Positions 8,077 through 60,524 of a stretch of 64,000 nucleotides of DNA are shown here, one piece after another. Source of the DNA: a virus (taxonomy: Duplodnaviria > Heunggongvirae > Uroviricota > Caudoviricetes); IMG/VR virus record IMGVR_UViG_3300028534_000514, positions 1-64,000 of that record. One strand, written 5' to 3'. The number at the start of each line of letters is the position of its first letter. The stretch's first letter is position 1. The notes below the pieces were generated by a model. That model saw only the letters and a list, made by a program, of their open reading frames with translations, did no database searches and had not been told where the DNA came from. The position numbers and the translations under genes were made by a program.

Positions 8077-8733
8077 TTAAGGCGCATTGGTTTCCTTTTT
8101 TAAAATTCGTCCTCGTTTCCAACCTTTTGGGATTGATGTATCTTTTTTTATTTTTCTATTTTCGGAGCCGTTTGTTATCCATATTGTGCCATATTGAGAA
8201 TTTTTGGGACCTTTAGAGTGATTTATTTTTTTAAAAGTTTCTTTTTGTTTCCGCAACGATTCTTCAGAATGCTTCCAATTTGGATGAAGTTCTTGCTTTC
8301 TTCTTTGACCTTTTTGTCCATTTTTTCTTAATTCCTTTTTGGACAGTCCGATTACACCCAATTTCTTTTCAACACAAATTAACCCACCCTTACGAGATTT
8401 TTCTCGATATTCTTCAGTAATAGTCGGTTTCCAAGTTCGCTTTAAAGAATTAATAAAATCAAAACCCCCATGTCCTCCCAGTTTTATATTATAATTATTT
8501 TTATCTTTGATATGATCCTCGTCAACCAACATACGTTCAATCCAATACGTTATCTCTTTTGAGCGTCCTACAAAAATAGGTAATTTATAGAAATTTTCTC
8601 TTCCATATTTATTTAAGGCCCTTTGAAAATAAGTACCTGAACCCAAGTACTCATCGTCAAAAGACCCTTTATGCACACCTATGTATGTTTTATTATTAAC
8701 TAAATTAGTTGTCTCATAAACATACCAATGCAT
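8077..8733 (-). CDS. GIY-YIG homing endonuclease (T4 Seg-like) with C-terminal NUMOD-like DNA-binding region
   Basis: N-terminus HWYVYETTNLVNNKTYIGVHKGS...YLGSG is a textbook GIY-(10-11)-YIG motif. C-terminus is basic (KKDTSIPKGWKRGR). Confidence 0.8.
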   Translation of the reverse strand: MHWYVYETTNLVNNKTYIGVHKGSFDDEYLGSGTYFQRALNKYGRENFYKLPIFVGRSKEITYWIERMLVDEDHIKDKNNYNIKLGGHGGFDFINSLKRTWKPTITEEYREKSRKGGLICVEKKLGVIGLSKKELRKNGQKGQRRKQELHPNWKHSEESLRKQKETFKKINHSKGPKNSQYGTIWITNGSENRKIKKDTSIPKGWKRGRILKKETNAP

Positions 8734-8755: not shown

Positions 8756-8841
8756 TGGTCTCGCGAGGGGGATTTGAACCCCCAATCCCTTACGGGCGAA
8801 AGATTTTAAATCTTTTGTGTATACCGTTCCACCACCGCGAG
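8756..8841 (-). tRNA. tRNA-Leu (anticodon UAA), type II, CCA encoded
   Basis: Reverse strand reads CTCGCGG...anticodon loop cuUUAAaau...variable arm...GGGGGTTCAAATCCCCC-TCGCGAG-A-CCA. Acceptor stem pairs with one G-U. Confidence 0.7.
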
Positions 8842-8864
8842 TTTTAATAAAAAATTTATATAAT

Positions 8865-8914
8865 TCCTAAATATTAAACTGTTTGTTAAGTGTCTACCAT
8901 TCCACCACCGCGGC
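8865..8914 (-). pseudogene. tRNA 5'-half remnant (diverged duplicate of the tRNA-Leu 5' half)
   Basis: Reverse strand GCCGCGGTGGTGGAATGGTAGACAC matches acceptor + D-arm of the adjacent tRNA-Leu (CTCGCGGTGGTGGAACGGTATACAC). No intact anticodon or T arm follows. Confidence 0.4.
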
Positions 8915-8920
8915 TTAAAT

Positions 8921-9036
8921 CCAGGTCTTTAAGGCGCCTCGGTTTCCTTAATTACATTTTTAATGATAGTTCACAATTCCATGTCTTTAAGGCGCATTGG
9001 TTTCCTTAATTGCATTTTTAATGATTATTCACATCC
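8921..9036. repeat. tandem 58-nt direct repeat (2 copies, ~85% identical)
   Basis: caggtctttaaggcgcctcggtttccttaattacatttttaatgatagttcaca / ccatgtctttaaggcgcattggtttccttaattgcatttttaatgattattcaca. Confidence 0.7.
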
Positions 9037-9339
9037 ATCGATATGTACTTCGATGGCTTTTTTTGGCGACACGTATATGAAAGTCGCCGATACATTGAGA
9101 AGCTGCAAAGCTTCTCTTAGGTTCTTGTCTTCGCACGTCCCTTTATAAAGGGTGTCTCTCAACGCGTTTACGTCGAAACCCTCGAGATCGTCAACATAAT
9201 AAATGTTGACGATCTCTTTGCCAGTCATAAATTGGCCGGCTTTTGTTGGTCCACTCTTTGTCAACTTTGTTTGATAAAGAGTAGGCGAAGCAACGAGCAA
9301 CGCTCCTGCGGCTAAAAAAAATAAAAGTATTCTTCTCAT
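9025..9339 (-). CDS. small secreted protein (~104 aa; start revised to MRRILLFF)
   Basis: The track ORF (to 9408) overlaps tRNA-Ser. The internal start has SD aaaaggaagagaaATG and a signal peptide MRRILLFFLAAGALLVASPTLY. Confidence 0.5.
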   Translation of the reverse strand: MRRILLFFLAAGALLVASPTLYQTKLTKSGPTKAGQFMTGKEIVNIYYVDDLEGFDVNALRDTLYKGTCEDKNLREALQLLNVSATFIYVSPKKAIEVHIDGCE

Positions 9340-9384
9340 TTCTCTTCCTTTTTTCTCAATTTTTTTAATAGGGAATATCTTCTT

Positions 9385-9471
9385 CCGAGGATGTTGGATT
9401 CGAACCAACGGTAAGCTTACGCCTACTCTCAGTTAGCAACCGAGTGGATTAAACCTCTCTCCCAATCCTCG
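9385..9471 (-). tRNA. tRNA-Ser (anticodon GCU), type II
   Basis: Reverse strand CGAGGAT...cggTTGCTAActgag (anticodon GCT)...long variable arm...GGTTCGAATCC...ATCCTCG-G. 87 nt. Confidence 0.7.
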
Positions 9472-9489
9472 ATATAAAATAAACAATTG

Positions 9490-9566
9490 TGGTGGGTGCG
9501 GAGGGACTCGAACCCCCGACCATTCGGTTATGAGCCGAATGCTCTAACCAGCTGAGCTACACACCC
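9490..9566 (-). tRNA. tRNA-Met (anticodon CAU; initiator, elongator or Ile-lysidine not resolved), CCA encoded
   Basis: Reverse strand GGGTGTGTAGCTCAGCTGGTTAGAGC...ggCTCATAAcc...GGTTCGAGTCC...CGCACCC-A-CCA. Confidence 0.75.
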
Positions 9567-9571
9567 TTGAT

Positions 9572-9646
9572 TGGCTTCGGAGGCAGGATTCGAACCTGCG
9601 ACAACCTGATTAACAGTCAGGGATTCTACCACTGAACTACTCCGAA
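9572..9646 (-). tRNA. tRNA-Asn (anticodon GUU), CCA encoded
   Basis: Reverse strand TTCGGAGTAGTTCAGTGGTAGAAT...ctgaCTGTTAAtcagg...GGTTCGAATCC...CTCCGAA-G-CCA. Confidence 0.75.
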
Positions 9647-9769: not shown

Positions 9770-10774
9770 TTAAAATACAAAGGTATATACAATAGCATAT
9801 ATTAATATTAATAGTTGCCATAAAATAATCACGTTAAAGTAATCATTAATTGGTGTATTAAAATACATTCTGCCTATATGTATACATTTATGGGTTGGGC
9901 TAAGATTATAAGCAATGAATTCAATTGTTAGAAACCATACCAAATAATGTATACCAAAGATTGAAATTATTATTGAAGCTAACCCGGCATATTTTCCGCT
10001 TGAACCCATAAGCCAACTAGCAGTAAAAGAAAAAAAACTAGCATAAACTAGGCTATGATTATTTTTGAGCAATTGCTCGAAAAGAGCAAAATGTTCTTTT
10101 ATAAAGAGTGAAACTATTAAAATAATAAATAATAATAAAACCAATTTCCAGTTTATGTATTTAAATATTTTTTTAATAGAGGAGTTACTTATTAATATAT
10201 AATACCCAGCGATTGGTATAAAGGTCAAAGCTGGAGAGTACCCAAAGCCTAATAGGATAATACCAAAAAATAATGGAAATGCTTTTAAAAAAAAAGATTT
10301 CAATGAAAATTTTTTCGTGGAAATCTTTAATTCAATATCCTCCTCTTTTATTATAAAAAAAATATATCCAAAAATAAAAAGAAAGGATATCACAATTACT
10401 GGCCACATATATTCAAAATATTCCTGGTAGGTTATACTAAGTACGGCCATTGGTAATATTACGGTTTTTTCAAGAGGACTCCAGAGATAATAATGATGAC
10501 TACTTAAATAATCAATTATTCCGAATTTTTTTCTTGATTTACCAGGTTTTGCCATAGAGTCTAATATACTAGCACTTACTGTTACCCTGCCTGGAATAGG
10601 AAGAATCCCCCCAATTAAAGACACCAAAAAAAGCTGCAGTCTCTTACTGCTAATTCTTGAAAGAACTATAAATATATCACTCAAAAATCCATAAGTTTTA
10701 ACGATTCCTGATATAATCATTATAGCGATCAAAAAGATAATATATTGAAATGGTAATATGTAATTTAATTCCAT
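9770..10774 (-). CDS. polytopic integral membrane protein (334 aa, ~9-10 TM)
   Basis: Extremely hydrophobic throughout. No catalytic motif recognised. Contains an in-frame copy of the GAGCAATTGCTC element. Confidence 0.55.
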   Translation of the reverse strand: MELNYILPFQYIIFLIAIMIISGIVKTYGFLSDIFIVLSRISSKRLQLFLVSLIGGILPIPGRVTVSASILDSMAKPGKSRKKFGIIDYLSSHHYYLWSPLEKTVILPMAVLSITYQEYFEYMWPVIVISFLFIFGYIFFIIKEEDIELKISTKKFSLKSFFLKAFPLFFGIILLGFGYSPALTFIPIAGYYILISNSSIKKIFKYINWKLVLLLFIILIVSLFIKEHFALFEQLLKNNHSLVYASFFSFTASWLMGSSGKYAGLASIIISIFGIHYLVWFLTIEFIAYNLSPTHKCIHIGRMYFNTPINDYFNVIILWQLLILIYAIVYTFVF

Positions 10775-10779
10775 CTAAT

Positions 10780-11172
10780 TTAGAATCCTTTCGCTTTAAT
10801 TGCTCCTGTATCTAAACTTGAGGTTGAACACCAGATTATGTCTTGGCCCGGATATTTTGGTGAATAAGGGGGACATTGATCAAAATACGGGTTTCTTGTC
10901 ATGGTTTGACTTGATCGCAAGGAAGCAACCTCCAACCTCAATCTAATTAGTTCAATATCATTTTCTCTAGCCTCTTTACGAAGTTCTTCAATCTCTTTAC
11001 GAAGTTCTGCATTCTCTTCTTTGAATTTTTCCCCTCTGCGAAGTTCCTCCAATTCAAAAAGTTTCTGTTGAAGAACGGTAATCGAATCATAGTCCCCTTT
11101 TACAAAAAGATTTCCACTGCCGTCACCAACACCCATTATAAGTTCACCAGGTTCTAGTTTAAAATTAGACAT
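10780..11172 (-). CDS. coiled-coil protein (130 aa)
   Basis: ELEELRRGEKFKEENAELRKEIEELRKEARENDIELIRLRLE heptads. Confidence 0.5.
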   Translation of the reverse strand: MSNFKLEPGELIMGVGDGSGNLFVKGDYDSITVLQQKLFELEELRRGEKFKEENAELRKEIEELRKEARENDIELIRLRLEVASLRSSQTMTRNPYFDQCPPYSPKYPGQDIIWCSTSSLDTGAIKAKGF

Positions 11173-11253
11173 TACATCTCCTTTATTATTTGAATATGTG
11201 TGTCTTGGGAATTAACTTTATCTTTTAAAGATTTAATTTTATTCCCAAGTTCT

Positions 11254-11508
11254 TCATTTTAATTCTTTATTCTTAATCTTATGCCAATCACTTTTATATA
11301 TCTCTTCTGGAATATCAGGATATACCCTTCGTACTTTTAAAGTTATCTTCCCAAATTTTTTATAGGTTGATGGCATTTCATCTATCAATATCTTAGCCCA
11401 TTCTATAATACTATTAATATTTTGATATTTTGAATCAGTATAATATGTTTTAAAAAAATTTTCCCCCAATTTAACCCGAAGTTTGCCTTCAATATAACTA
11501 CTACTCAT
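11254..11508 (-). CDS. hypothetical protein (84 aa)
   Basis: ORF track. Confidence 0.45.
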   Translation of the reverse strand: MSSSYIEGKLRVKLGENFFKTYYTDSKYQNINSIIEWAKILIDEMPSTYKKFGKITLKVRRVYPDIPEEIYKSDWHKIKNKELK

Positions 11509-11764
11509 TATATAATCTTTTATGAATTAATTTTACTGCTTCTAATATAATTTTATCTTCTCTGGTCGCTTTCCTGACTTCTTCATCACTATACCAACTA
11601 TGACTTGTAACATATTCAACTTCTTCCATTAATTTACCATTTTTAATCCACATATGGGGATGAATTCCAAAAGTATTTTTAATATGAGCGATTGCTATTT
11701 CCGCTGATTGGTCATCCGTAAGATTTATTTTTCTTTTTTTGGTTTCAGTAATTGTAATTTCCAT
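11501..11764 (-). CDS. hypothetical protein (87 aa)
   Basis: ORF track. Overlaps neighbours by a few nt. Confidence 0.45.
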   Translation of the reverse strand: MEITITETKKRKINLTDDQSAEIAIAHIKNTFGIHPHMWIKNGKLMEEVEYVTSHSWYSDEEVRKATREDKIILEAVKLIHKRLYNE

Positions 11765-11765
11765 A

Positions 11766-12119
11766 TTATGTCTCCATTAATAACTTTAATTTTTCATCAA
11801 TTGATAATAATTTCTGTTTAAGTTCATTGATTTCCTCTTTAGCCATATTTAATTCTGTTTTTGTTTTAATTAGATCCATCTCTAAGCTATTGAGGCCCGA
11901 AGATATTTCTCGATGTCTATCTACATCTGTGCTTCCAAATGCATTTACATTTCCAACATCCCCAAACACAGAATCAAAATCAACATTAGGAACAGAGGCT
12001 GTTCTCTCCATAGCAGCTGTTATATCTTCAATAGTAATTGTTCTACCTATAGTACTCGGTCTTTCGAAAGTTGTTCTTTCTTCCGTAATATATATTGCTC
12101 TAGTATTATTTTCTTCCAT
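11766..12119 (-). CDS. hypothetical protein with C-terminal coiled coil (117 aa)
   Basis: ORF track. Confidence 0.5.
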   Translation of the reverse strand: MEENNTRAIYITEERTTFERPSTIGRTITIEDITAAMERTASVPNVDFDSVFGDVGNVNAFGSTDVDRHREISSGLNSLEMDLIKTKTELNMAKEEINELKQKLLSIDEKLKLLMET

Positions 12120-12121
12120 AT

Positions 12122-13765
12122 TTAATTCCTTATATTATCAATTTTTTCAAAGGCCTCAGCCATTAGTTTTATATTTTCACCACCTTTATAATCATCTTTA
12201 TCAATTGTGAAATACACTTTATACTTTTGACCTTTTTCAGGAACGTTTGTTTCAAAGAATTTTACACCATCAAATTTAACTAGTCCTTTTTCATCCGTAA
12301 TTACAAACCTAAGATGGTTTCTATTTTTACCCATAAGACTTGCTGATTTAAGAATTCCTTCTGTGAGAAAAACTGGTTTACGAAAACGATGACCAAATGG
12401 CTCAAATTCTCGAATAACCTCAAAAAAATCCCAGTTAATTTTATTAATTGGGATTTTTCCCATAACTTTACGTTTTGGCTTAAGAATTTCCGGAGGTACT
12501 TTTTGTATATCAGATTGTAGTTGGAGGTAAAAATCTTCGAATTTTTCCTCCTCGATTGTTATACCAAGTGCCTGCTTATGACCACCAACCTGTTTTATAT
12601 AGGGATTATCACGTAAAACATCCAAAATATTTAAGTCACCAATTGATCTCCCGCTCCCACTATATTCTTTGGTTTCGGGATTATAATTTAAAACTATACA
12701 TGGTTTATTATTTGATTGAGCCAAATTGCCCGAGATAACACCAAGAACTCCTTTAAATTCTTTTTGAAATTTGCCAGGAATTACTATAAAAGGTGCATTT
12801 ATATACTCTTTATAGTATTTTTCAATATATGATAATAGATTTTGCTGCTTTTCTTTCCGTGCTTCATTTAAACTTTTAAGATATTCAAACCATTGTTTGC
12901 TATTTTCTTTGGTGTTTGAAATAAGAAACATTGCTCCATGATCTGCTTTTGTCATTCTTTGAGTTGCGTTAATCATAGGCACTAAACCAAAGCTGAAAGA
13001 TTCGGCTGTTGGATTAGCATTAACTTCTTCCCTGAATATATTTAAATATTCTCTATGACAACTATCACTCGAACAAAATTTATCTACAAAATCTTTTACA
13101 ACATATCTATTAATATGTTTATTAATTGGCATAACATCACTTATCGTTGTTAAAGCAATTTCTGGAAGAAATTCGTCGTATACGTCGATCGGCACCTGAT
13201 ATTTTTCGACGAGCGCTTTAATAAAAAACCATAAAACGAAGGTACCACTAATATCTTTATAGGGGAAGGTATCCTCTGGATGATATGGATCGACAATTGC
13301 GTCCGCCTCAGGTAGCCCCATATCTAAATCTGGTTGATGATGATCGCATATAATTACCTTCGCTCCTTTTTTATGAGCAGCTTCTGTTGCAGGTATTGAA
13401 GTAATTCCATTATCTGATGTTATGTATAGTTTTGTATCATCATCGATGTATTCTGGTATAAATCCGTACCCTTTTTTGCGGTCTGTGATAAGCAATTCAA
13501 TATTACTATAAGGAAAATGGATAAAAAAATTATACCAAAGAGTATATGTACCCAAACCATCCATATCACTATCGCAAACCAATTTAATTTTTTCATTATT
13601 AGCAACCGCCTTTGTAAAAATATCTACAGCTTTGTCCATATCATGCAACTCATATGGATTTGGAAATTCTTTATAGGAATATACCTGAGGATACTGTTCC
13701 AATTCTTTTTCCAGAAGTTCCTTAAGGTCATCCGGCTCATTAAATACACGTATATTATCTTGCAT
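12122..13765 (-). CDS. DHH-DHHA1 family phosphoesterase (RecJ-like exonuclease or NrnA-like oligo/cyclic-nucleotide phosphodiesterase)
   Basis: DHH motifs VCDSDMDGLGT and ICDHHQP. DHHA1 motif VGGHKQALG near the C-terminus. 547 aa. Confidence 0.7.
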   Translation of the reverse strand: MQDNIRVFNEPDDLKELLEKELEQYPQVYSYKEFPNPYELHDMDKAVDIFTKAVANNEKIKLVCDSDMDGLGTYTLWYNFFIHFPYSNIELLITDRKKGYGFIPEYIDDDTKLYITSDNGITSIPATEAAHKKGAKVIICDHHQPDLDMGLPEADAIVDPYHPEDTFPYKDISGTFVLWFFIKALVEKYQVPIDVYDEFLPEIALTTISDVMPINKHINRYVVKDFVDKFCSSDSCHREYLNIFREEVNANPTAESFSFGLVPMINATQRMTKADHGAMFLISNTKENSKQWFEYLKSLNEARKEKQQNLLSYIEKYYKEYINAPFIVIPGKFQKEFKGVLGVISGNLAQSNNKPCIVLNYNPETKEYSGSGRSIGDLNILDVLRDNPYIKQVGGHKQALGITIEEEKFEDFYLQLQSDIQKVPPEILKPKRKVMGKIPINKINWDFFEVIREFEPFGHRFRKPVFLTEGILKSASLMGKNRNHLRFVITDEKGLVKFDGVKFFETNVPEKGQKYKVYFTIDKDDYKGGENIKLMAEAFEKIDNIRN

Positions 13766-13850
13766 TTATAAATCCTTATATTATTCTGCGTTAGAATTAT
13801 AATTTCTATATTTGCTCTAAAAAAATTAGCACAGGAAAATACCCTGCCAA

Positions 13851-14438
13851 TTAAGGCAAGGTATTTCCAACTTCGTCAAAATACTGATAACTTCTGCATT
13901 CGGGACAAAAAATTCTTCCTGTCGGATTTCCATTTGAATCCATCTCACAAGCCTTAAAAATAATTTTTGTAAGAGTTTTTGAACCTCTATCCGTTGGGTC
14001 ATCACCATCTGTATCTGTTAGCTCGGTACAATTTCCTTCGAAAATATCTCCAAAAGTAAACCCTGGTTCATAGTAATAAGGAACATCTTTTGAAACTTCA
14101 AATCCACATTTTGAATTTGTACAAAAGATATATTGATCAGCATCAATTTTAGTTACTGAGTCTAATTTATCAATACCCATATTATCACCATATCTTCTAG
14201 ATCTACCATCCAACGTTGTTTGTATTTTGATACCACTTCCCGGACGTTCTGGGTCTTCAATAACTAAAGTAGTATTAAATACCTTCCGATGCGGCTCATA
14301 AGCAGCAAGAATTGTTTCTTTACCAGCAATTTTTTTTAGAAAGGATTCAAACTCCTGGTCCATTTCACCATTATTTTCATCATAACCATAGGCCTCTTTT
14401 AGACCATCGATATCTTTAAAAATACCTCTTAATTCCAT
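13851..14438 (-). CDS. zinc-ribbon protein (195 aa)
   Basis: CTNSKC ... CPEC Cys4 arrangement in the C-terminal half. Preceded by an AACAAAGAT motif ~30 nt upstream. Confidence 0.5.
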   Translation of the reverse strand: MELRGIFKDIDGLKEAYGYDENNGEMDQEFESFLKKIAGKETILAAYEPHRKVFNTTLVIEDPERPGSGIKIQTTLDGRSRRYGDNMGIDKLDSVTKIDADQYIFCTNSKCGFEVSKDVPYYYEPGFTFGDIFEGNCTELTDTDGDDPTDRGSKTLTKIIFKACEMDSNGNPTGRIFCPECRSYQYFDEVGNTLP

Positions 14439-14522
14439 ATAGTATCCTTTATATAAATGTATTGAATCTTTGTTATCATAATCTAACCCGCGCAGGAAAA
14501 ACTATTGGCCAAAGCCAATAGT

Positions 14523-15215
14523 TTATAGAATATTTTTAGCGTCTTTAGCTGCCATTTTTATAATAAGATCTCTAAATTTTTCCATATCCGTTTCTTGGAT
14601 AATATTTTTAAATATTTCTAAAAATAGATTTTGTTTTTTAACATGTTCATCAAGAAGTTCGATATTTTCTTCTACCAAATTCTTTTTGGCCACCTTTTCA
14701 AAATGTAACAGTGTTTTTACAAAATCGTCAAATTGTGTCATATTATGATCTAATTCCTCTATAACTAATTCCCTTAGATTTATGAGATTTAAATCATCAC
14801 TTAGAAAATTATTTAAATTTTCAGGGGTATCTATTCCTTGATTTTTAAATATATTTCTAAGTATTTGATAAGGTAATAAAAACATAATAAAATTTACAAT
14901 TTTAAGAAGAAAAACTCTTTTTTCATCCTGATTATTAAATTTATAATAAATATTTTCAAAATCTATATCTAAATAGTTTTCATCCACATCTCTAAGCCAT
15001 GGTTCAAAAGTCTCTTCATACCACCATTCGAATTCAGTCGAGCTCATGTCTGTAATATCATGCTCGAAACTAAAATAATTAAAATTCTTAAAGTCATAAT
15101 CCCTAAGAAATTCAAATTCCGGGGCAAGAAGAATTGCTTCATTATAATCTGGCTTTAATGGTAAAACCGTTAAGGAATCCTGTTGATCCCCTCCGGTATC
15201 CTTATAATATATCAT
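14523..15215 (-). CDS. acidic hypothetical protein (230 aa)
   Basis: ORF track. Confidence 0.5.
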   Translation of the reverse strand: MIYYKDTGGDQQDSLTVLPLKPDYNEAILLAPEFEFLRDYDFKNFNYFSFEHDITDMSSTEFEWWYEETFEPWLRDVDENYLDIDFENIYYKFNNQDEKRVFLLKIVNFIMFLLPYQILRNIFKNQGIDTPENLNNFLSDDLNLINLRELVIEELDHNMTQFDDFVKTLLHFEKVAKKNLVEENIELLDEHVKKQNLFLEIFKNIIQETDMEKFRDLIIKMAAKDAKNIL

Positions 15216-15277
15216 TTACTTCCTTTTCACTTTATATTCTTTATATTCTTTATATTATAAAAATATATAGATTGTTG

Positions 15278-15556
15278 CTATGTTTGAGCATGACGTTTAT
15301 GTACGATCTCTTTAGCACGATTTACTTTCGCCCTAATCTCTGGAGGTATATTTTTTCCTCCACGATTTAAAAAGAAGTTTAATCTAGCCATCGTTGTTTT
15401 AAGGCTGGCTTTACCGTGCTGGGAAATTATATTCGCGATTTCTTCAGCAGATTTCTCTTTAAATGTTCCAGCTGGCGGATGAAATTTTTCACGGACTTTA
15501 TTTGCCCATTTTTCTTCAGCTTCCTCAATAAGTCTTTCAATTTTTTGCTCTAGCAT
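15278..15556 (-). CDS. small basic protein (92 aa)
   Basis: ORF track. Overlaps the upstream gene by 20 nt. Confidence 0.45.
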   Translation of the reverse strand: MLEQKIERLIEEAEEKWANKVREKFHPPAGTFKEKSAEEIANIISQHGKASLKTTMARLNFFLNRGGKNIPPEIRAKVNRAKEIVHKRHAQT

Positions 15557-16655
15557 TTTTTATCCTTTTATTTTTCTTAGTATTTTTTATCCTTTGCTGT
15601 TCTTCGATATAATCATCAATGGTACGTTTTAAATCGAGCCATGCTTCTGTAACATACTTTGGTTTTTTAGGAAGAGTTCTGCGATTCGGAAAAACTTTAA
15701 AGTAATATTTCTTTACTTTATTCCACTCTCTTAATCCAACTTTTTTTCTTTTAGGTATTTCTATTGGATGAATAATGTCTTTTTGGTCCTCGAGATAATC
15801 AGCCATTCTTCTAAGTACATCAGGCAATTCTTCGTTTGAGATGCCATGACGAGCAGCGTTGTTTTCCGAACGAGCTAAAAATGTGTTACACATACTACAG
15901 ACTGCCCCACGAATACGCCCGGTACCTTTAACTCGCTTTTGATGCATATGATCCAAAGTTGGATCTTTTACGGGTTTACCACAAATTGTACATTTACCTT
16001 TCTGTTTATGTAAAAGAGCATCTCTTAAAGGTTTAACAGCTTTTGATTTACAAACCCACATAAAATGAGGCAAATAAGTTTTATTAATATTGAACCCCAA
16101 GTCGTTAGGAACTGTAATTTTATTTTTTGTATTTCGCTGTTGGTAAAGAGCTTCAATAGTATGTGCTTCTAAAAGAGCGCATTCGATTTTATCGATTGGT
16201 TCTATTTTAAAAGATTTCCATTTATGAGGATTCCATAACTTATCGAAATCTTCTAGAAAATTTCCCTCTGATTTTTCATCGAGATTTGACAATATCCCTA
16301 TTTTCTCAAACATCATGCCTGTCTCTTTATGAGTAACAAGAATACGATAATAGAGAGCTCGAGTCTCAAAGATTTCAGGTTGATCTTTATTTTTCTTGAA
16401 GAAATCTAACCAGAAATCTCCGCCAGAGTATTTCAATTCATCTTTAATTGTTTTTTGAGCTTCTTCTAAAATATTCATCATACGAGACGATTTTAAGAAT
16501 TGACACCGAGGACAATCACCGTTCCCCCGTTTTACTTCCTTAACTTTTTTATAATATAAGCCATGCTCTTCACAGGTAATCGAAATAAAATCTTCATCAG
16601 AATTTATCTCTTTAGGAATGAAGTGCATGCTTTCTGGAAGTTGTAATACGTTCAT
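15537..16655 (-). CDS. HNH endonuclease of the endonuclease VII type, with N-terminal Zn-ribbon region
   Basis: C-terminal half KGKCTICGKPVKDPTLDHMHQKRVKGTGRIRGAVCSMCNTFLARSENN matches the T4 endo VII DHxH...G.IRG.LC..CN signature. Confidence 0.65.
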   Translation of the reverse strand: MNVLQLPESMHFIPKEINSDEDFISITCEEHGLYYKKVKEVKRGNGDCPRCQFLKSSRMMNILEEAQKTIKDELKYSGGDFWLDFFKKNKDQPEIFETRALYYRILVTHKETGMMFEKIGILSNLDEKSEGNFLEDFDKLWNPHKWKSFKIEPIDKIECALLEAHTIEALYQQRNTKNKITVPNDLGFNINKTYLPHFMWVCKSKAVKPLRDALLHKQKGKCTICGKPVKDPTLDHMHQKRVKGTGRIRGAVCSMCNTFLARSENNAARHGISNEELPDVLRRMADYLEDQKDIIHPIEIPKRKKVGLREWNKVKKYYFKVFPNRRTLPKKPKYVTEAWLDLKRTIDDYIEEQQRIKNTKKNKRIKNARAKN

Positions 16656-16743: not shown

Positions 16744-19700
16744 TTATAGATCTGGATCTAATATAGCTCCCCTGAAAAAGGTTTCAACCAATTTCTTAGT
16801 TTTTCCCTCTGCCGAATCGACATGTAAATCAAATATTTTTGGCATTTTACCAGTTTTAAGAACTTCTTTTTGGAATTTTCTTTTTGCCTCTTTATTATCA
16901 GAATGTAGTCCGTGAACTTCTTTTATAAGTAGACCAGGTTCTTTATAAGACATTCCAAATAAATCATATAATCCTAGCTTAATTGCTCCGGCTCCTACTC
17001 TAGTTCCGGAGCGTCCTTGTCCTGTAGTAAACTGACTTTTGACAGATAACGACCCCCGCGCACCAGCCATTGCCTTAGGAAAATGTTCCAAATAATTTAC
17101 AGGCATTATTCCAACAGGAACCTCTTTCTCTGTAAGAATATCTTCCTCTGGTACATATACCTTTTCATTAAGCGGAATACCCAAAACATTAGCAGCTTTC
17201 TGTATATTTTCAATAGTTATTTTATTTTTATGCGGAGGTACTAATAAAGGAAATGCCGGTCTTGATAGAGGATCACTTCCTAAAATATATTTCTTAATTT
17301 CTTGTGAAGAGCGGCTATCAAAGAAACCCATTACTTCATTTATTAAGAATTTATCTTTTGATTCATCCATATGGGTAAATACTTCTAGGATAAGTTCTCT
17401 AGCTTTTGATATTTGATCAGCTTTCGCTAATTCTTGAAGCTTCTTATTTAAGAAGTAAATAACTTTTCCACTATACATTAATAGAAGAATACTTACGTTT
17501 TTTCTTGATACAATCGAAAGTGGAGTTGGTATAAATTCAATCTTCATATTGGTTTTTTCCGAAACGGGTTCTTTACCTTTTGGTATGATGTATTGAACTG
17601 TTCCTTTACCACCGGTTGCTGCTAACGTAAACTTAGATCCATTTGCTATTTTATTTGGTTTTTCTATATAAATTTCGACAACTGCTCCATCGAATTCTGA
17701 GCCATTTACCGAATGCCCTCCGATTTTTATAATCTCTGTATTTGGGATATCAGAAATACAATCAACGTATTCCTTATGATTATGTTTTAAAAGTTGACAT
17801 TCTTGTTGTCTAGCTTCAACATCCTTTGCCATTTTTTTCCACTCTTTAAAAACTGTACTATCAACATTTTTATTATTTATTTTAATAACAATATCCGTAA
17901 TTTTTCCTCCGGGAGAACGGTAGTTTGTCTGCTGGCCGCTAAATTCAACTCCGGTTAAAACATCGTCTGATGTTGACTCGTCATCCTCTTCCTCGACAAT
18001 AAATCTATCAAGATTATTGCTTCCGGAAAAAGAAATTAAAATATCACCAGGATCAGTCTCTTTGCCAGATAAAAGATTCCAATCAACTATTTTTGCATCA
18101 ACTGGTATAACAACTATAACTTTTTCAAGAATTTTTTGCTCGTATTTATCCTGAACGCTTTCAGTGACTACCCAACCATCTTCATAATTCATTCCTCTAT
18201 ACGACATTTCAGCAACTACCAGGTTTTTACCACTAGCCAATTTTCCAGTTTTTAGACTCGAAGTTGTTGCTAATAAATCACCTTCTTTTACTCTTTGTCC
18301 GTCTTTAGCAATTACGTGGTATTTCATTGGGATATAAATACCACGTTTAGTTCTAGCTCTGGTTGGTTTAATACTATACTTAGATTGGGTTCCATCTCTA
18401 TTCTTAATAATAATTGTTTCATCAGTTATACTTGAAATAATTCCATCTTTTTTAGCTTTAATAGCAAATCTATCAGAAACAAGATGAGGTATAATACTTT
18501 CAAAAGAGGTTTGAACAAGAGGTTCATCTGGATTATCTAATTGAACGAATTGTCCAAATTGTTGGTTACCCATAACCCTTCTGGTAGTATCATCATATTC
18601 GTAGAATGGTTGAAGTGATTCACTCGCGGATAATAAATCGAACGGGTTAATATCATCAGTAAATTCTCTCTGCATAATAGATCCAAATCGATCAGTAATG
18701 GTTGCTTTATTAGTTAGTGTTTGGGTACTACCAACATTTCCATACTCATTTGTAGATACTGGAGCGATTACACCATAATATGAAGGATTCAAATCCCTTT
18801 TCTTTAGGGTAACTTGATCGGCCTTCATATTATTAACACCTGTTTTTGTAATCTTAGAACTAAAGTTAATCTCTTCAAGTGGATTTGTAGTTTGAGTATA
18901 TTGTAACATACCGCTTGCTTGCAATCGCTTAACGATCGCCAATGGATCTAAAATAAGTTTAAGATCATAAGCGTTTCCGGACTGTTTAAGATTTCTAACT
19001 CTACCTAAAGCTTCTCCAAATACGTTATACGCACTATTAGAAATCGCCTCAGCCATACGAATACGTTGGGTATTCAAATCGTTAAAATCTTCTTCTTTAG
19101 CATTCATTAAATATTTTGGAATATATTTACCAAGAACATCCATCATATTCGATGGAATATTATACATTTTTAAAATTTTAGCTGTTGTTTGGTCAATAAA
19201 TTGCCTATTTAATGTCTCTAAATTTTTACCAAAGGATTCACCTTTCATTTTAAAAAAAGGATTCCATAAATCTTTAGAAGACAATTCTTTCTTTTCAACT
19301 GGAAAAATTAACTTCATACCATCGAGAAGTCCATTAATCATATATTCTTCGATAACGCTGGTTGCGAAAATAGAAAGATAATTATCTTTATCGTCTATTA
19401 ATTTAAGATGTAGGTGAGCCCCAGGAGCTTTTTTCTCTCCAAATTGATAACGAAATCCAAAAAATTTAAGAGTATCCATTAATCCAAGATTTGCTATAAA
19501 AAAATGAATAAGATTAATAGTTTTACCCTGTATCTTTAATCCAAATCGAGGTTTTGAACTCTTGGCCTTTAAATCTATTCTTTCGCCAAATACTTCTTTT
19601 GAAATATTTGTATATAAATTTATAAGAAATGAAACAATTTCTTCTTTTGGCCATTTTTTAAAGTCACCTTCTTCTGTATGAAAATGAATATCAGGATCAT

Positions 19701-19800
19701 CTGGTGTTATATAAGCATATTCGACAACCTTAGAACCATTTAATTTTTCATAAAAATATAGTTTATCTTTTTTTTCATTTTCAAAATTAATTCGATACAT
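16744..19800 (-). CDS. multisubunit RNA polymerase beta-subunit homologue, C-terminal part (Rif-region to C-terminus), highly diverged
   Basis: TTNPLEEINFSSKIT ~ QNNPLSEITHKRRIS. PSYYGVIAPVSTNEYGNVG ~ THYGRVCPIETPEGPNIGL. GKNLVVAEMSYRGMNYEDGWVVTES ~ [25 protein letters not shown]. 1018 aa. Own AACAAAGTAT promoter-like motif. Confidence 0.7.
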   Translation of the reverse strand: MYRINFENEKKDKLYFYEKLNGSKVVEYAYITPDDPDIHFHTEEGDFKKWPKEEIVSFLINLYTNISKEVFGERIDLKAKSSKPRFGLKIQGKTINLIHFFIANLGLMDTLKFFGFRYQFGEKKAPGAHLHLKLIDDKDNYLSIFATSVIEEYMINGLLDGMKLIFPVEKKELSSKDLWNPFFKMKGESFGKNLETLNRQFIDQTTAKILKMYNIPSNMMDVLGKYIPKYLMNAKEEDFNDLNTQRIRMAEAISNSAYNVFGEALGRVRNLKQSGNAYDLKLILDPLAIVKRLQASGMLQYTQTTNPLEEINFSSKITKTGVNNMKADQVTLKKRDLNPSYYGVIAPVSTNEYGNVGSTQTLTNKATITDRFGSIMQREFTDDINPFDLLSASESLQPFYEYDDTTRRVMGNQQFGQFVQLDNPDEPLVQTSFESIIPHLVSDRFAIKAKKDGIISSITDETIIIKNRDGTQSKYSIKPTRARTKRGIYIPMKYHVIAKDGQRVKEGDLLATTSSLKTGKLASGKNLVVAEMSYRGMNYEDGWVVTESVQDKYEQKILEKVIVVIPVDAKIVDWNLLSGKETDPGDILISFSGSNNLDRFIVEEEDDESTSDDVLTGVEFSGQQTNYRSPGGKITDIVIKINNKNVDSTVFKEWKKMAKDVEARQQECQLLKHNHKEYVDCISDIPNTEIIKIGGHSVNGSEFDGAVVEIYIEKPNKIANGSKFTLAATGGKGTVQYIIPKGKEPVSEKTNMKIEFIPTPLSIVSRKNVSILLLMYSGKVIYFLNKKLQELAKADQISKARELILEVFTHMDESKDKFLINEVMGFFDSRSSQEIKKYILGSDPLSRPAFPLLVPPHKNKITIENIQKAANVLGIPLNEKVYVPEEDILTEKEVPVGIMPVNYLEHFPKAMAGARGSLSVKSQFTTGQGRSGTRVGAGAIKLGLYDLFGMSYKEPGLLIKEVHGLHSDNKEAKRKFQKEVLKTGKMPKIFDLHVDSAEGKTKKLVETFFRGAILDPDL

Positions 19801-20436: not shown

Positions 20437-21282
20437 TTATATTTTATTTAATTTAAGAATATCTTCTTTAAAGAATTCTGTCCGCCCACCTTTAGTTTCA
20501 GGCCAGCTTGGGTTCTCGCAACGTATATAATTAAAAGCTTCTAATATTTCTTGCTCTGCTAGATATGCATCCTGTCCATTTTCATAAGTTTGCTCAAACA
20601 GAGCAATTGCTCGTTTAGAGCAAAATTCCTTACCAAAACGTTCTTCTATACTATTGTTAGTAATACCTATTTTATATAGATCTTCTTGTGGATCCCAAAT
20701 ATAATATAAGATAGCAGGCTTATCTGGATTAAAGCCATTTTTAGAACATCTTGGGCAACCAGCACCCTTATAAAGATGATTCATCGCAAAAACCTCGAAA
20801 TTACCATGAATTTCACAATTTAATTTAATTTTATCAAAAATATTATTATAATTTATATCGCTATAATTATATTTATCTCCATGAATAGCTTTCGATTCTC
20901 TAATAAACTCATTTCTTCTTTTATTCAGATCGCATGATGGACACCCACTTCCTTTTAAATGTAAACGTGCAGTTGTTTTAAAAACTCCACATTCGCATAC
21001 AATACTAAGAGTTCTATTCCACAGGCGGTCATAACCAATTAAATCATAGTTATATTTATCTCCATGAATATCTTTAAATCTTATTATTAATTTATCTCGT
21101 TTTTCTTCTTTTTTACAATGTGGACATCCACTTCCTTTTAAATGATCAGAAGGAGTTTTTTTAAATATACCGTGCTTTTCACACTCTATATTTATAGGAG
21201 AATGAGCTCCGAAATATTCGCTATAACTATATTTATTATTATGAATTCCATTTGCTCGCTCCACAAAATCATTTAAAGTCAT
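20437..21282 (-). CDS. homing-endonuclease-like protein: three Zn-ribbon repeats + C-terminal T5orf172/GIY-YIG-like domain
   Basis: Three repeats of H(G/N)DKYNY...C..HG.F......HLKGSGCP.C. C-terminus ILYYIWDPQEDLYKIGITNNSIEERF. Start codon overlaps the beta-N stop (TAATG). Confidence 0.6.
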   Translation of the reverse strand: MTLNDFVERANGIHNNKYSYSEYFGAHSPINIECEKHGIFKKTPSDHLKGSGCPHCKKEEKRDKLIIRFKDIHGDKYNYDLIGYDRLWNRTLSIVCECGVFKTTARLHLKGSGCPSCDLNKRRNEFIRESKAIHGDKYNYSDINYNNIFDKIKLNCEIHGNFEVFAMNHLYKGAGCPRCSKNGFNPDKPAILYYIWDPQEDLYKIGITNNSIEERFGKEFCSKRAIALFEQTYENGQDAYLAEQEILEAFNYIRCENPSWPETKGGRTEFFKEDILKLNKI

Positions 21283-24870: not shown

Positions 24871-26043
24871 CTATTCGCTAAATTCAAAAATATCTGTAGT
24901 TAAATCAACTTCTGTTTTATCGAGACTTAACCCAGTATGTGCCGCTTTAAGAGTCATCGCTGTCAACATATTTGCTTGGGCAGTACTCGACAAAAGACCA
25001 ATACCAGCATTTTCTGTAAGATTCATACGCTCTATAAAATCAGGGTTATAACAGGTATGACAAATACCATCTCTTGTTTTACAATATAAAGGACTTCTTA
25101 ATTTAATAGTTTTACCAATTAATTCTGTTCTATCCGGACCAATAATTCCTTGATCAGATACTTTTCCTTTCATCGAGACCAACATATCCTTGTTTAGAAT
25201 TTTTACGCCCAACCTGCCTGATGTTTTACAATCAATTGTTTTTGATAACTTAACTCCGGCCATAATTGTATTAAGCTGCCTAATCAAATATCCTGGAGCA
25301 GCTGTTTCTCTTGATTTTTTATATTGTGAGACAATAGCTTGGGAGGTATAATTAAAAAATTGAGTCGGTGTTAATCCTTCTGCTCCGGAGCGTGGAATAA
25401 CGTCATTAATTTCACCCTTTGCATTAATAGATAAACCAATCGCTACTAAAAGTTTACGTAGATCGTCTGGAGAACCTTTTGCACCGGAATCAAAGCTATC
25501 AATGATCGGATAATCATCCTTGTGTTCGCGAAAATACTCAAGAACCTCTTTCGTTAATTTTTTAAATTGATTATCAACCCATAAAATTGCTGCTTCTTTC
25601 TGATTCTCGGTATTGGCTTCATCTACTTTAGTCTGATATTCATCGATTATTTTTTGGCGCTTAATTCTGAATTCTTTCGGAAGAACTAATGATTCTGGAG
25701 TAAATGAACTAGCAGTATAAGTGCTAAGAAAAAATCCAACTTTATATACCAGCATGTATCTCCACTGAAATTCTTCGTCTGTAAATACATTATACATTTT
25801 ATCCAATAAAATACTTACATTTTTTTTATTTAATGGATAGGGAGGTGAAATTTTATTATCAAGAATAATTTCTTTAAAAAGTTTTCTAATAAGAGAGGTA
25901 TTGATATTTCCTGATGTATCATAATTTCTTTTTACTTCTTTTTGAAATTTGGCGAAAGTTTCTTCGACCCAATCCGGTTGTTTAAATGCTTCTGGGATAA
26001 TAACACCGGGTAGCGTTGTTGTATCAGCATTGGAATATGTCAT
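24871..26043 (-). CDS. multisubunit RNA polymerase beta'-subunit homologue, middle/C-terminal part (bridge helix through trigger loop)
   Basis: [20 protein letters not shown] ~ [29 protein letters not shown] ~ [32 protein letters not shown] ~ [42 protein letters not shown] ~ GEPGTQLTMRTFHIGG. C-terminus ...DIFEFSE ~ DLFEAR. Confidence 0.7.
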   Translation of the reverse strand: [390 protein letters not shown]

Positions 26044-42553: not shown

Positions 42554-42700
42554 CGTCTATGGAGATCACATTATGTTTGATATTTTTATATCCGACTATC
42601 TCCATAATATATAGTATTTTCGATCCACATGAATATGAAGAAAATACAGAAGTTCTTCTTAAAATTTTTGAGGAAGCTAGTAAAATTAATAAGGAATTAA

Positions 42701-43786
42701 ATGAAACAGATTATTGAATTAAATCAACCAACTCAAGAAACATATAAGTTATTCTTTGGGGATCACGGGGGCATGCTCCGTGTTGATCAAGTGGATTATC
42801 CGGTTATTATGAATACATTCAAAAAAATGTTTAGTGATGTCTGGTCTTGGACAGTCGTTGATTTTAAAGCCGATATTATCGGATGGGGAAAAATTGATGA
42901 ACAAGGACAGAGAATATTTTTATTGAATAACGGCTATCAGACCGTTATGGATTCAGGTGTTGTAAATATTTATAATTATTTAGCAATGATTGCGACAAAT
43001 ACGGAAACCAAACTAGGCTATCAATATATCGCTCAGAATGAAAGTATTCACGCCGGTTCATATAGTTATGGTTTAAGTCAGATGTTTGGCTCGGAAGCCG
43101 AAGCTAAAATTAATATTGTTTACGAAGATGAATTCATTCAAAATCGTATGACCAATGAAATTGATTTCAGTGACGAGCTTATTAATAGTGTAATTATTCA
43201 GGGGGAAGAGAATAGAGAAGCCGTATTTAAAGCAATTGTGGCAACATATGTTCTGGAGCATATTAAATTCCCTTTCAGCTTCTTTACAACATGGACAATC
43301 AATAGAATTTATGATAATGCAATTAATGGTTTTAGTCAATTATTGAAATTGATTGCTCAGGACGAACTCGATGGACATGTTCCTATGAATAAAAATGTTC
43401 TGCGTATCCTTAAGAGAGAAGCACGCCAAGGATTTAATGATGTTTGGGATGAGCAATTCGTTTATGATTATGTTCGTAAAGTAGCAGAAGATGAAAAGAA
43501 ATGGAGCGCCTATTTATTGAAAGAAGGTGAATTACCCGGATATAACACCAATATAAATAATAATTTTATAGAGTATCAAGCGGATAAAGCTCTTATTGAT
43601 CTTGGTCTTAAACCGATTTATAAAGCAGAAAAAACAGATACAATTGATTGGTTTAATTCCTACCGCAGGATTAAAAACCAGAATTCAGCTTTACAAGAAG
43701 TGTCAAATATCAGTTATAATAAAGGAATTGTCCAGAATGATATTCTGGCAAATTTAGATAAACTTAAAAAGGTTGCTAACCTATGA
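42701..43786 (+). CDS. nrdB: ribonucleoside-diphosphate reductase small subunit (NrdB-like, ferritin fold)
   Basis: 361 aa. Di-iron/tyrosyl radical region NNGYQTVMDSGVVNIYNYLAMIATNTETKLGYQYIAQNESIHAGSYSY and further E..H pairs. Immediately downstream of nrdA. Confidence 0.8.
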   Translation: MKQIIELNQPTQETYKLFFGDHGGMLRVDQVDYPVIMNTFKKMFSDVWSWTVVDFKADIIGWGKIDEQGQRIFLLNNGYQTVMDSGVVNIYNYLAMIATNTETKLGYQYIAQNESIHAGSYSYGLSQMFGSEAEAKINIVYEDEFIQNRMTNEIDFSDELINSVIIQGEENREAVFKAIVATYVLEHIKFPFSFFTTWTINRIYDNAINGFSQLLKLIAQDELDGHVPMNKNVLRILKREARQGFNDVWDEQFVYDYVRKVAEDEKKWSAYLLKEGELPGYNTNINNNFIEYQADKALIDLGLKPIYKAEKTDTIDWFNSYRRIKNQNSALQEVSNISYNKGIVQNDILANLDKLKKVANL

Positions 43787-44923: not shown

Positions 44924-44992
44924 TTTATCTCCTTATATAATTTAGATTAAAGACTGTGACCAGCCTGAGTATTATAACTCAAAGCATTACGA

Positions 44993-59828: not shown

Positions 59829-60524
59829 ATGTCTGATAAACTATTCGGTCCGTGGATTCGGACTAAACCAAAATATATTTTTGATATTTTTGAGGATAAT
59901 AGTTCCGTTGCGTTATACCCTTTTGATAATAGTTTAGTAGACTATGGAAATGTTCATCATCTTCATGTTCATGCCGGTATAAATCAATTCGGTTCAGGAG
60001 TATTATCCACTTCAGAGATATCGTCAGGAGTAGTTCTAAGAACTGCCCCAAATGATTATTTATTCCAAAATAATCATTATACAGTTTCCTTTTGGATTCG
60101 AGGACATTCGGAGATGAGTACAGATAATTGGCCAGGTATTTTTGCACAAGGACCAGATGGTCCTTATGGCACACAATTAATTATAAATGACAGTTTAGAG
60201 TTAAGAATATCGTATGGACACGCCGTAACCTATTTAACTGGTGCTTTTATCGTCGAAGGAGAGTGGCATCATGTTATTATATCATCGGATGGAGCCAATG
60301 GTGCTGATGTATATTACGATGGTAGCGCCATTAAACATCTTGATGAATTAGAAAGTAATACTGATAGTAATAATAACATTGGGTGTACATCAATAAAAAG
60401 TTATTATAATGCCTATTATGATACAGAATATATGATAGACGCAGATATTGATCATTTTAGAATTTTTAACAGAGGAATATCCTCAGAAGAAGCTCTTGCT
60501 CTTTACCAAGAAAAAAAATTATAA
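59829..60524 (+). CDS. concanavalin A-like lectin / LamG-like domain protein (231 aa)
   Basis: EGEWHHVIISSDGANGADVYYDGSAI is the LamG-type W.HV..T.DG....LYVDG pattern. ATGA-type coupling to the upstream fibre gene. Confidence 0.5.
   Translation: MSDKLFGPWIRTKPKYIFDIFEDNSSVALYPFDNSLVDYGNVHHLHVHAGINQFGSGVLSTSEISSGVVLRTAPNDYLFQNNHYTVSFWIRGHSEMSTDNWPGIFAQGPDGPYGTQLIINDSLELRISYGHAVTYLTGAFIVEGEWHHVIISSDGANGADVYYDGSAIKHLDELESNTDSNNNIGCTSIKSYYNAYYDTEYMIDADIDHFRIFNRGISSEEALALYQEKKL

Follow-up and report, generated by a model that had tools for sequence, protein, structure and literature searches.

The tailed-phage record IMGVR_UViG_3300028534_000514 (IMG/VR; Caudoviricetes) contains, within the 64,000 nucleotides analyzed here (positions 1 to 64,000 of the record, in the following called the window), a gene for a phosphoesterase with DHH and DHHA1 domains. 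The question raised by this locus is whether its product is a RecJ-like nuclease acting in recombination or a NrnA/GdpP/Pde2-type enzyme that removes signaling or defense nucleotides. An initial annotation, made from the sequence alone, had named both alternatives and considered the sequence insufficient to decide between them. The analysis presented here suggests that the gene quite probably encodes a bacterial-type RecJ, i.e., a metal-dependent and processive 5′→3′ exonuclease on single-stranded DNA (ssDNA), which most likely serves to resect DNA ends during recombination-dependent replication and repair. The in silico evidence covers the domain architecture, the fold, the catalytic and substrate-binding residues and the gene linkage, and from these we infer what the enzyme does, with which polarity, and which role it has in vivo.

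Domain architecture and fold

The corresponding open reading frame (ORF; positions 12122..13765, minus strand) starts with an ATG, which is preceded by an AAGGA ribosome-binding site 7 nt upstream, and codes for 547 amino acids followed by a stop codon. Plus-strand ORFs overlapping the gene (60-84 amino acids) were found to be without support. The three sequence motifs on which the assignment to the DHH-DHHA1 family had originally been based, DSDMDGLGT (residues 65-73), DHHQP (residues 141-145) and GGHKQALG (residues 394-401), are present in the translated protein, and the assignment was confirmed by Pfam, with both DHH (E = 1.2e-12) and DHHA1 (E = 8.2e-8) scoring above their gathering thresholds. 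A third domain, RecJ_OB, which had been missed before, was identified in the C-terminal part (70.3 bits versus a cut-off of 27, E = 1.8e-19), and these three were the only Pfam families matching the protein at E ≤ 1. The RecJ_OB domain, named after its oligonucleotide/oligosaccharide-binding (OB) fold, was present in 120 out of 120 homologs among the matches listed. All seven RecJ motifs are kept, with motif I (D65/D67/D69), motif II (D118) and motif III (D141-H142-H143) inside the DHH domain, motif IV (D210) just downstream of the Pfam match, and motif VI (G370-S371-G-R373-S) and motif VII (G394-G395-H396) in the DHHA1 domain. The motif and domain matches are far above chance level.

A profile-based comparison of RecJ with NrnA, which had been proposed as a check by the initial annotation, came out on the RecJ side. 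The NCBIfam model TIGR00644 (recJ) matched the protein from one end to the other (model positions 28-544 of 546; 330.2 bits, E = 1.8e-98), whereas none of the NrnA-, GdpP- and Pde-type NCBIfam models matched at E ≤ 1. The remaining NCBIfam matches were weak and belonged to archaeal RecJ/GAN models (NF053576, 47.9 bits versus a cut-off of 360; NF053575, 33.2 bits versus a cut-off of 850). PHROG 2484, annotated as “RecJ-like ssDNA exonuclease,” was matched with E = 5e-74, and the top sequence matches in the PDB were the RecJ proteins of Staphylococcus aureus (8y30, E = 1.9e-38), Deinococcus radiodurans (5f54, E = 1.2e-26) and Thermus thermophilus (2zxo, E = 5.6e-22).

An AlphaFold2 model calculated from a 25-sequence alignment (mean predicted local distance difference test score, pLDDT, of 92; predicted template modeling score, pTM, of 0.88) contains a helix of 32 residues (286-317) linking the two catalytic lobes and five β-strands between residues 466 and 541 that make up a C-terminal barrel. 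The linker helix is exactly as long as helix α15 of D. radiodurans RecJ (residues 296-327), and the lobes together with this linker are predicted to form a ring with a central ssDNA hole, as in RecJ. When the model was compared with the PDB using Foldseek, bacterial RecJ structures ranked on top, with template modeling (TM) scores of 0.84 for 8y30 (E = 2.6e-37), 0.76 for 2zxo and 0.74 for 5f55 and an overall range of 0.72-0.84 for RecJ. NrnA, Pde2, GdpP and a Thermotoga maritima phosphodiesterase (PDE) reached 0.31-0.39 (E of about 1e-9 to 1e-8). An identity as archaeal RecJ/GAN or eukaryotic Cdc45, which have the DHH-family core in common with the phage protein and some of which bind ssDNA, was rejected, given their differing domain organization, profile scores far below the cut-offs and TM scores of 0.32-0.50.

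The likeness to bacterial RecJ (S. aureus 8y30, D. radiodurans 5f54-5f56, T. thermophilus 2zxo, Escherichia coli; TIGR00644/RecJ_OB) comprises the order of DHH, long linker helix, DHHA1 and OB fold, the seven motifs, the 5′-phosphate pocket, the ribose-gating tyrosine and the gateway arginine and lysine residues. Differences concern the sequence identity, which is 20-23% in alignments based on structure and about 28-32% relative to the most similar RecJ of cellular origin, and clade-specific substitutions, including two in the substrate pocket (Tyr80→Ser66 and Ile116→Phe102, with D. radiodurans numbering given first). Moreover, D. radiodurans RecJ possesses an extra C-terminal domain binding the C-terminus of the ssDNA-binding protein (SSB), whereas the phage protein lacks it and stops just after the OB fold, in which it resembles the short RecJ forms of about 520-580 amino acids. 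RecJ-like exonucleases of other phages (PHROG 2484; gp79 of Bacillus phage 0305phi8-36; YorK of SPbeta and its relatives) belong to the same PHROG, have the same three-domain architecture and are likewise found in replication/recombination neighborhoods, but no GenBank phage record exceeds 28% identity over the greater part of the protein, and 32% is reached in partial matches only. NrnA, Pde2, GdpP, the T. maritima PDE and Sulfolobus MAD share the DHH and DHHA1 lobes and the two-metal chemistry with the phage protein. However, they are two-domain proteins of about 310-340 amino acids with a short linker, without OB fold and with short RNA or cyclic ribonucleotides as substrates, whereas the phage protein is 547 amino acids long and has kept an OB domain, a 32-residue linker helix and DNA-specific pocket residues. 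Judged by its sequence, the protein is a real, well-conserved and ordinary RecJ-family exonuclease, namely a divergent jumbo-phage member of a known family.

Active site and clade-specific substitutions

Roles were assigned to individual residues by a printed alignment to D. radiodurans RecJ and the structure-function data on this enzyme (PMC4846377; eLife 2016), for which the importance of the metal, 5′-phosphate, ribose-clash, stacking and gateway residues was shown by mutagenesis (PMC4846377). All of the corresponding residues in the phage protein (Table 1), except V211 and N347, are invariant or nearly so in 25 sequences with 26-79% identity to the query. In these clade and outgroup sequences D65, D67, D69, D118, D141, H142, H143 and D210 are invariant, as are R96, Y100 (part of a G99-Y100-G101 motif), R270, R303, G370, S371, R373, G394, G395 and H396, with K304 being nearly so. 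Since the 5′-phosphate pocket and the ribose-clashing Tyr100 are conserved, linear 5′-phosphorylated DNA is predicted as substrate rather than cyclic ribonucleotides or ribo-oligonucleotides, and from the same two features hydrolysis of 3′-phosphoadenosine 5′-phosphate (pAp), nanoRNA, c-di-AMP and cyclic oligonucleotides appears unlikely. The sequence itself reveals the OB domain, motifs V-VI, the 5′-phosphate pocket and the ribose-excluding tyrosine, so that the former statement that the sequence leaves the choice undecided was wrong.

According to the mechanism that we propose, a 5′-phosphorylated ssDNA end would thread the hole made by the DHH lobe, the 32-residue linker helix and the DHHA1 lobe, with R96, R270, S371 and R373 holding the terminal phosphate. 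Two metals bound to D65, D67, D69, D118, H142, H143 and D210 would then cleave off single deoxynucleoside monophosphates (dNMPs) successively, while Tyr100 would keep ribose out and the downstream strand would be bound by the C-terminal OB fold where single- and double-stranded DNA meet. In the infected cell, a helicase would supply the single strand and RecJ would resect 5′ strands wherever the phage DNA has ends, gaps or breaks, including the breaks introduced by the phage's own homing endonucleases. The resulting 3′ tails would allow recombinase loading, strand invasion and recombination-dependent replication and repair, and the linked endonuclease VII (endo VII)-like enzyme would resolve the branched products.

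The phage protein and its relatives form a clade that was monophyletic in 95 of 100 bootstraps of a neighbor-joining tree, whose sister group was unstable, with saturated distances giving numerical warnings. This clade differs from other RecJ proteins at the aromatic position of motif I. The residue found there in D. radiodurans RecJ, Tyr80, stacks on the +1 base, and the exchange Y80A lowers kcat/Km from 17.1 to 1.1 μM−1 min−1, i.e., about 15-fold (PMC4846377). The sequence D[S/C]D is found in all 16 clade loci (the loci compared are numbered with an L in the following), whereas every other phage RecJ locus has D[Y/F]D, except for L085 and L086 with V or P. In an alignment of 184 sequences, the position of Ser66 is occupied by S in 80 and by S or C in all of the 87 clade sequences, compared to Y in 92 and Y or F in all of the 94 others. 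Similarly, position 102 is F in 79 of the 87 clade sequences and L, I or V in 88 of the 94 others. Eight more residues were recognized as signatures of the clade, namely P104, F167, T206, W292, L310, P330, G376 and F504, the last of which is an extra invariant phenylalanine within the OB fold. An aromatic residue in motif I is a conserved but not a catalytic feature, and its loss may be compensated by Phe102. From the alignment, the substitutions look like a repacked rather than a decayed nucleoside pocket.

On circumstantial grounds it is conceivable, albeit improbable, that the remodeled +1 pocket (Ser66/Phe102 together with F504) could adapt the enzyme to non-canonical bases in phage DNA or discriminate phage from host DNA. 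Uracil-containing DNA is a property of phiR1-37 and Staphylococcus phage S6, which are among the nearest cultured relatives by RNA polymerase. In six clade loci (on five contigs, with L006 and L008 representing one contig) a Gat-QueC-type gene is located about 3-8 kb from RecJ. The encoded QueC-like proteins begin with Met-Cys and carry the QueC PP-loop and a cysteine cluster, and they are probably Gat-QueC-type fusions. As genes of this type belong to phage 7-deazaguanine DNA-modification pathways (PMC6884629), there are hints that part of the clade may have 7-deazaguanine-modified DNA. No DNA-modification or Gat-QueC gene was found in the 64-kb window, and a pattern scan of Joint Genome Institute (JGI) contigs for Gat-QueC, which needed exact matches to degenerate patterns, returned the clade contigs of 272,602 and 281,328 bp and not the 285,272-bp contig that carries a RecJ identical to the one analyzed here. 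A radical S-adenosylmethionine (radical-SAM) gene was observed in one relative (L004:13970-14791).

Gene linkage and possible functions

In the window RecJ is located two genes downstream of a gene for an endo VII-like nuclease, whose core (residues 208-301) aligns to residues 9-110 of T4 endo VII, including the zinc-binding cysteine pairs and the D-H/H/N residues. The two genes in between, g28 and g27, yielded no match in Pfam, PHROG, PADLOC or the PDB. The order of RNA polymerase β gene, endo VII-like gene, g28, g27 and RecJ is kept in the 71%-identical relative L002 (GCA_029935855.1). The position of endo VII beside RecJ is kept in L002/L003 and L017, and homologs lie within 10 kb of RecJ in L011-L014, which amounts to seven clade loci in total. 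Within the same distance, an RNA polymerase β gene was found in eight and a clamp-loader-like AAA+ gene in nine clade loci, the latter also being matched weakly (E = 5e-6) in L048, a locus outside the clade. Near the RecJ genes of relatives at 41-44% identity, helicases of superfamily 2 (DEAD/ResIII, SNF2) and superfamily 1 (PIF1/RecD-like) are encoded, accompanied by a ligase in L004 and by a Metallophos nuclease-like protein in L007.

A linkage to recombination and replication genes is also seen outside the clade. In Bacillus phage 0305phi8-36 the RecJ gene gp79 is about 4 kb away from the RecQ helicase gene gp70. For a census of neighbors, ORFs with a minimum length of 180 amino acids were collected around RecJ from 46 non-redundant distant viral loci, the nearest three in each case, and the resulting 133 proteins were scanned with Pfam. 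Toprim/DnaG primases (14 of 133) and RecA (13 of 133; best E = 4e-94) were the most frequent neighbors, followed by DNA polymerase III α, topoisomerase and terminase. For SPbeta-like phages, an exchange of the RecJ-like gene as one block with those for DnaB, DnaG and DNA polymerase has been described (PMC11348598). A separate gene for a two-domain DHH-DHHA1 protein of NrnA size (310-340 amino acids) follows immediately downstream of RecJ in five loci of distant huge phages, on contigs of 103-504 kb (Table 1). None of these NrnA-sized proteins matched the window RecJ at E ≤ 1e-3, and such a pair may represent RecJ together with a putative nano-oligonucleotidase. Neither the window nor the clade loci contained a second DHH protein.

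Several observations weigh against the assignment as a resection enzyme of the RecJ type. The 330.2 bits obtained with TIGR00644 lie below the equivalog cut-off of 396.9, and the protein is therefore, by its profile score, to be regarded as a divergent member of the RecJ family and not as a certified TIGR00644 equivalog. Because Y80A has the above-mentioned effect on D. radiodurans RecJ, the presence of Ser66 in place of the motif I aromatic residue implies that kinetics or base preference may differ, and the gateway residue K353 of D. radiodurans RecJ corresponds to N347 in the phage protein. Regarding the genomic context, the endo VII-like neighbor could be a homing-type nuclease instead of a junction resolvase, and the 64-kb window yielded neither a recombinase nor an SSB nor a RecQ-type helicase. 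Furthermore, a terminator-like hairpin lies between RecJ and the upstream block, a weak signal in view of six such sites in the region compared to 2.9 ± 1.6 expected.

Among other possible functions, a role in nucleotide scavenging, in which RecJ, an endonuclease and a helicase would break the host chromosomal DNA into dNMPs for phage synthesis, is regarded as unlikely to be the principal one. RecJ indeed releases mononucleotides processively (PMC4846377), the phage invests in nucleotide supply by encoding both subunits of a class I ribonucleotide reductase, and the NrnA-sized DHH-DHHA1 proteins encoded beside RecJ in the five distant huge phages could finish short oligonucleotides. On the other hand, RecJ is restricted to ssDNA and requires a helicase, and the genes linked to it belong to recombination and replication (endo VII, RecA, DnaG, RecQ, clamp-loader-like) and are not host-shutoff nucleases. 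Scavenging would be compatible with a function in recombination, as the two do not exclude each other.

Still somewhat less probable as the main function is housekeeping at the fork or in repair, i.e., the removal of displaced lagging-strand 5′ flaps or a participation in base excision repair (BER), in which bacterial RecJ is active, or in mismatch repair of phage DNA. It would fit to such a function that a DnaG-type primase is the commonest neighbor of phage RecJ, that the SPbeta-like RecJ-like gene travels with replication genes (PMC11348598), that a primase/helicase gene is part of the block containing RecJ, and that D. radiodurans RecJ reportedly takes part in BER (PMC7515722). However, the ribose-excluding Tyr100 argues against a direct removal of RNA primers, and RecA, RecQ and endo VII are linked to RecJ equally frequently. 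In part the distinction from recombination is semantic, with replication and recombination being mechanistically coupled in large phages. Both scavenging and housekeeping are possible secondary roles alongside recombination.

The reading as an anti-defense or signaling phosphodiesterase, which would degrade c-di-AMP, pAp, nanoRNA, the cyclic oligonucleotides of CBASS (cyclic oligonucleotide-based antiphage signaling systems) or type III CRISPR cyclic oligoadenylates (cOA) like NrnA, GdpP, Pde2 or the Sulfolobus DHH-DHHA1 protein, is very improbable. Its basis is the DHH-DHHA1 catalytic core common to the phage protein and these phosphodiesterases, the degradation of cyclic tetra-adenylate (cA4) by the cellular DHH-DHHA1 protein MAD and the association of DHH nucleases with type III CorA (PMC8284326), as well as a gene for a Tad2-like protein (PF11195, 87 amino acids), which the 71%-identical relative carries six genes downstream of RecJ (L002:13235-13498). 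Against this stand the architecture, with signaling and defense DHH enzymes being two-domain proteins without OB fold, the absence of NrnA-type NCBIfam matches at E ≤ 1 along with the low TM scores (0.31-0.39 versus 0.72-0.84 for RecJ), and the kept 5′-phosphate pocket and ribose-clashing tyrosine. The known DHH-DHHA1 enzyme degrading cOA is a cellular two-domain membrane protein (PMC8284326), and in the five distant huge phages that encode an NrnA-sized DHH-DHHA1 protein, its gene is distinct from RecJ and lies next to it, with no match between these proteins and that of the window. A PADLOC scan of RecJ and nine neighbors gave no match, and none of the domains of the known phage proteins directed against CBASS, Thoeris or type III systems, Acb1, Apyc1, AcrIII-1 and Tad1/Tad2 (2H phosphoesterase, metallo-β-lactamase, DUF1874 and Tad folds) was found in the RecJ protein by Pfam at E ≤ 1. 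In full-text searches of the literature, no relevant phage precedent was found for DHH-family anti-defense enzymes or for RecJ in jumbo phages. An anti-defense island context was considered as well and rejected, as the same-sized window ORF at 11501-11764 is unrelated to the Tad2-like gene, which no window protein matches.

Two observations had been named beforehand as speaking against a signaling function, a clear RecJ OB fold and the co-occurrence of recombination genes in relatives. Both were made in this study, the former in the shape of the PF17768 match (E = 1.8e-19) and the modeled five-stranded barrel, the latter with endo VII in the clade and RecA, DnaG and RecQ elsewhere, and for this reason the NrnA/GdpP/Pde2-type or defense-nucleotide alternative fails, and a role against CBASS, Thoeris or type III systems lacks support. 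The RecJ alternative is, in turn, strongly supported by RecJ_OB, TIGR00644, PHROG 2484, the fold and the residues. Of the initial annotation, the family assignment and the RecJ option therefore stand, whereas the signaling/defense option and the view that the sequence cannot decide do not.

The carrier phage and the RecJ clade

The assignment of the window to a phage holds, with baseplate, tail-fiber, virion and split multisubunit RNA polymerase genes being present. The identical RecJ protein is recorded on a contig of 285,272 bp, of whose length the 64-kb window represents 22%. The contigs carrying relatives with 40-90% identity reach lengths of 224-290 kb; all of these relatives have the three domains, and the clade was found on uncultured contigs only. 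A megablast search of positions 10000-16000 against GenBank phages gave no match, i.e., no close cultured relative. By RNA polymerase, the nearest cultured phages are Listeria phage LPJP1, the Fusobacterium phages JD-Fnp, Yersinia phage phiR1-37 and Staphylococcus phage S6, to which the β-like protein is about 23% identical; given this value, the phage appears to belong to a deep uncultured lineage. The nearest cellular RecJ proteins (28-32%) stem mostly from metagenome-assembled genomes and isolates of Campylobacterota. The mean identity to RecJ of this phylum is, with 29.0%, barely higher than the 27.1% to other bacteria, and the similarity is at best a weak hint at the host, so that no donor is claimed for the clade.

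The coordinates of the features discussed are compiled in Table 1. The motif ATAATATAAGGA upstream of RecJ occurs, with up to one mismatch, in six copies (12127-12138, 13773-13784, 15199-15210, 15247-15258, 35724-35735 and 44930-44941) compared to 1.9 expected. Five of the six directly precede start codons (those of g25, RecJ, g28, g47 and g59), and the motif may act as a promoter and ribosome-binding-site element common to these genes. Matches to sigma-70-like promoters were at chance level (29 versus 30.4 expected) and no weight was given to them. Among the homing-endonuclease-like genes, which are interspersed with polymerase and primase genes, one is T5orf172/GIY-YIG-like with a treble-clef zinc finger, one is of the HNH type (PHROG 3339, E = 1.5e-105) and one gave a weak SegE-like match. 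Double-strand breaks made by such endonucleases would need 5′ resection.

Table 1. Positions and assignments of features of the RecJ protein, of its locus and of loci of relatives (coordinates with an L refer to the locus named, all others to the window; Dr, D. radiodurans RecJ).
Feature	Position	Strand	Details
RecJ OB-fold domain	12155..12457	minus	PF17768 RecJ_OB, residues 437-537
DHHA1 domain	12527..12754	minus	PF02272, residues 338-413
Linker helix between catalytic lobes	12815..12910	minus	residues 286-317 of the AlphaFold2 model, carries gateway R303 and K304
DHH catalytic domain	13217..13588	minus	PF01368, residues 60-183
Phe102 codon	13460..13462	minus	coupled signature, two residues after Tyr100; GYGF versus GYG[L/I/V]
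Ser66 codon	13568..13570	minus	replaces motif I aromatic residue; equivalent of Dr Tyr80
Metal ligands	D65, D67, D69, D118, H142, H143, D210		Dr D79, D81, D83, D135, H159, H160, D223
5′-phosphate pocket (sets 5′→3′ polarity)	R96, R270, S371, R373		Dr R109, R280, S371, R373
Ribose clash (DNA specificity)	Y100		Dr Tyr114
Base stacking	V211, F259		Dr V224, F269
Helical gateway (excludes double-stranded DNA)	R270, R303, K304, N347		Dr R280, R313, R314, K353
ATAATATAAGGA motif	13773..13784	minus	upstream of RecJ, includes ribosome-binding site; appears as direct repeats D1, D7
Terminator-like hairpin, then T-run	13831..13847	minus	between upstream gene and RecJ; consensus scan
g27	13851..14438	minus	195 amino acids, two C-terminal Cys pairs; syntenic homologs in L002 (53% identity) and L017
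g28	14523..15215	minus	230 amino acids, acidic; syntenic homologs in L002 (75% identity) and L017
Endo VII-like nuclease	15537..16655	minus	372 amino acids; Pfam Endonuclease_7, E = 4.9e-12; PHROG 423, E = 5e-24
Split multisubunit RNA polymerase β/β′-like genes	16744-19800, 24871-26043, 26154-27419	minus	jumbo-phage type
Primase/helicase	27462-30374		same gene block as RecJ
Homing-endonuclease-like genes	20437-21282, 30458-31468, 8077-8733	minus
Four tRNA genes	8756-9646	minus	Leu-TAA, Ser-GCT, Met-CAT, Asn-GTT
Class I ribonucleotide reductase	40286-43786		large and small subunits
NrnA-sized DHH-DHHA1 genes	L022:11748-12731, L026:11693-12715, L027:11779-12756, L042:11975-12907, L028:13038-13985
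QueC-like proteins	L006:14496-15911, L007:20025-21377, L011:15162-16634, L012:15350-16765, L014:14294-15733		450-490 amino acids; relatives with 38-48% RecJ identity

In addition to these features, some unusual auxiliary genes were observed on the minus strand of the window, coding for a membrane-transporter-like protein (9770-10774; DUF401/CitMHS, E = 3.9e-13) and an SPFH/Band-7 protein (921-1868; E = 1e-19). On the plus strand, positions 55098-55958 encode a protein of 286 amino acids whose N-terminal part resembles P-loop kinases (APS_kinase, E = 1.7e-6) and which gave weak cytidylyltransferase-like matches below the Pfam cut-offs; it may be a NadR-like or nucleotide-cofactor salvage enzyme. 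Further downstream on this strand, an 802-amino-acid protein with seven YadA-head repeats (57418-59826; E = 4.9e-32) is followed by a concanavalin-like lectin (59829-60524; Laminin_G_3), and both are probable receptor-binding genes.

With respect to the DHH-DHHA1 family, these results imply that RecJ and NrnA-type enzymes are separable by architecture alone, and that a phage DHH-DHHA1 protein with a RecJ OB fold, a 5′-phosphate pocket and a ribose-excluding tyrosine is not to be read as a degrader of immune signals. The gene defines a RecJ clade that is specific to uncultured jumbo phages encoding multisubunit RNA polymerases, and within this clade RecJ is part of a conserved DNA-processing block together with the endo VII-like nuclease. 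The pocket substitutions of the clade pose a structure-function question on base recognition by RecJ. Finally, the findings extend the picture of large phages that bring their own resection enzymes in the style of the RecF pathway.

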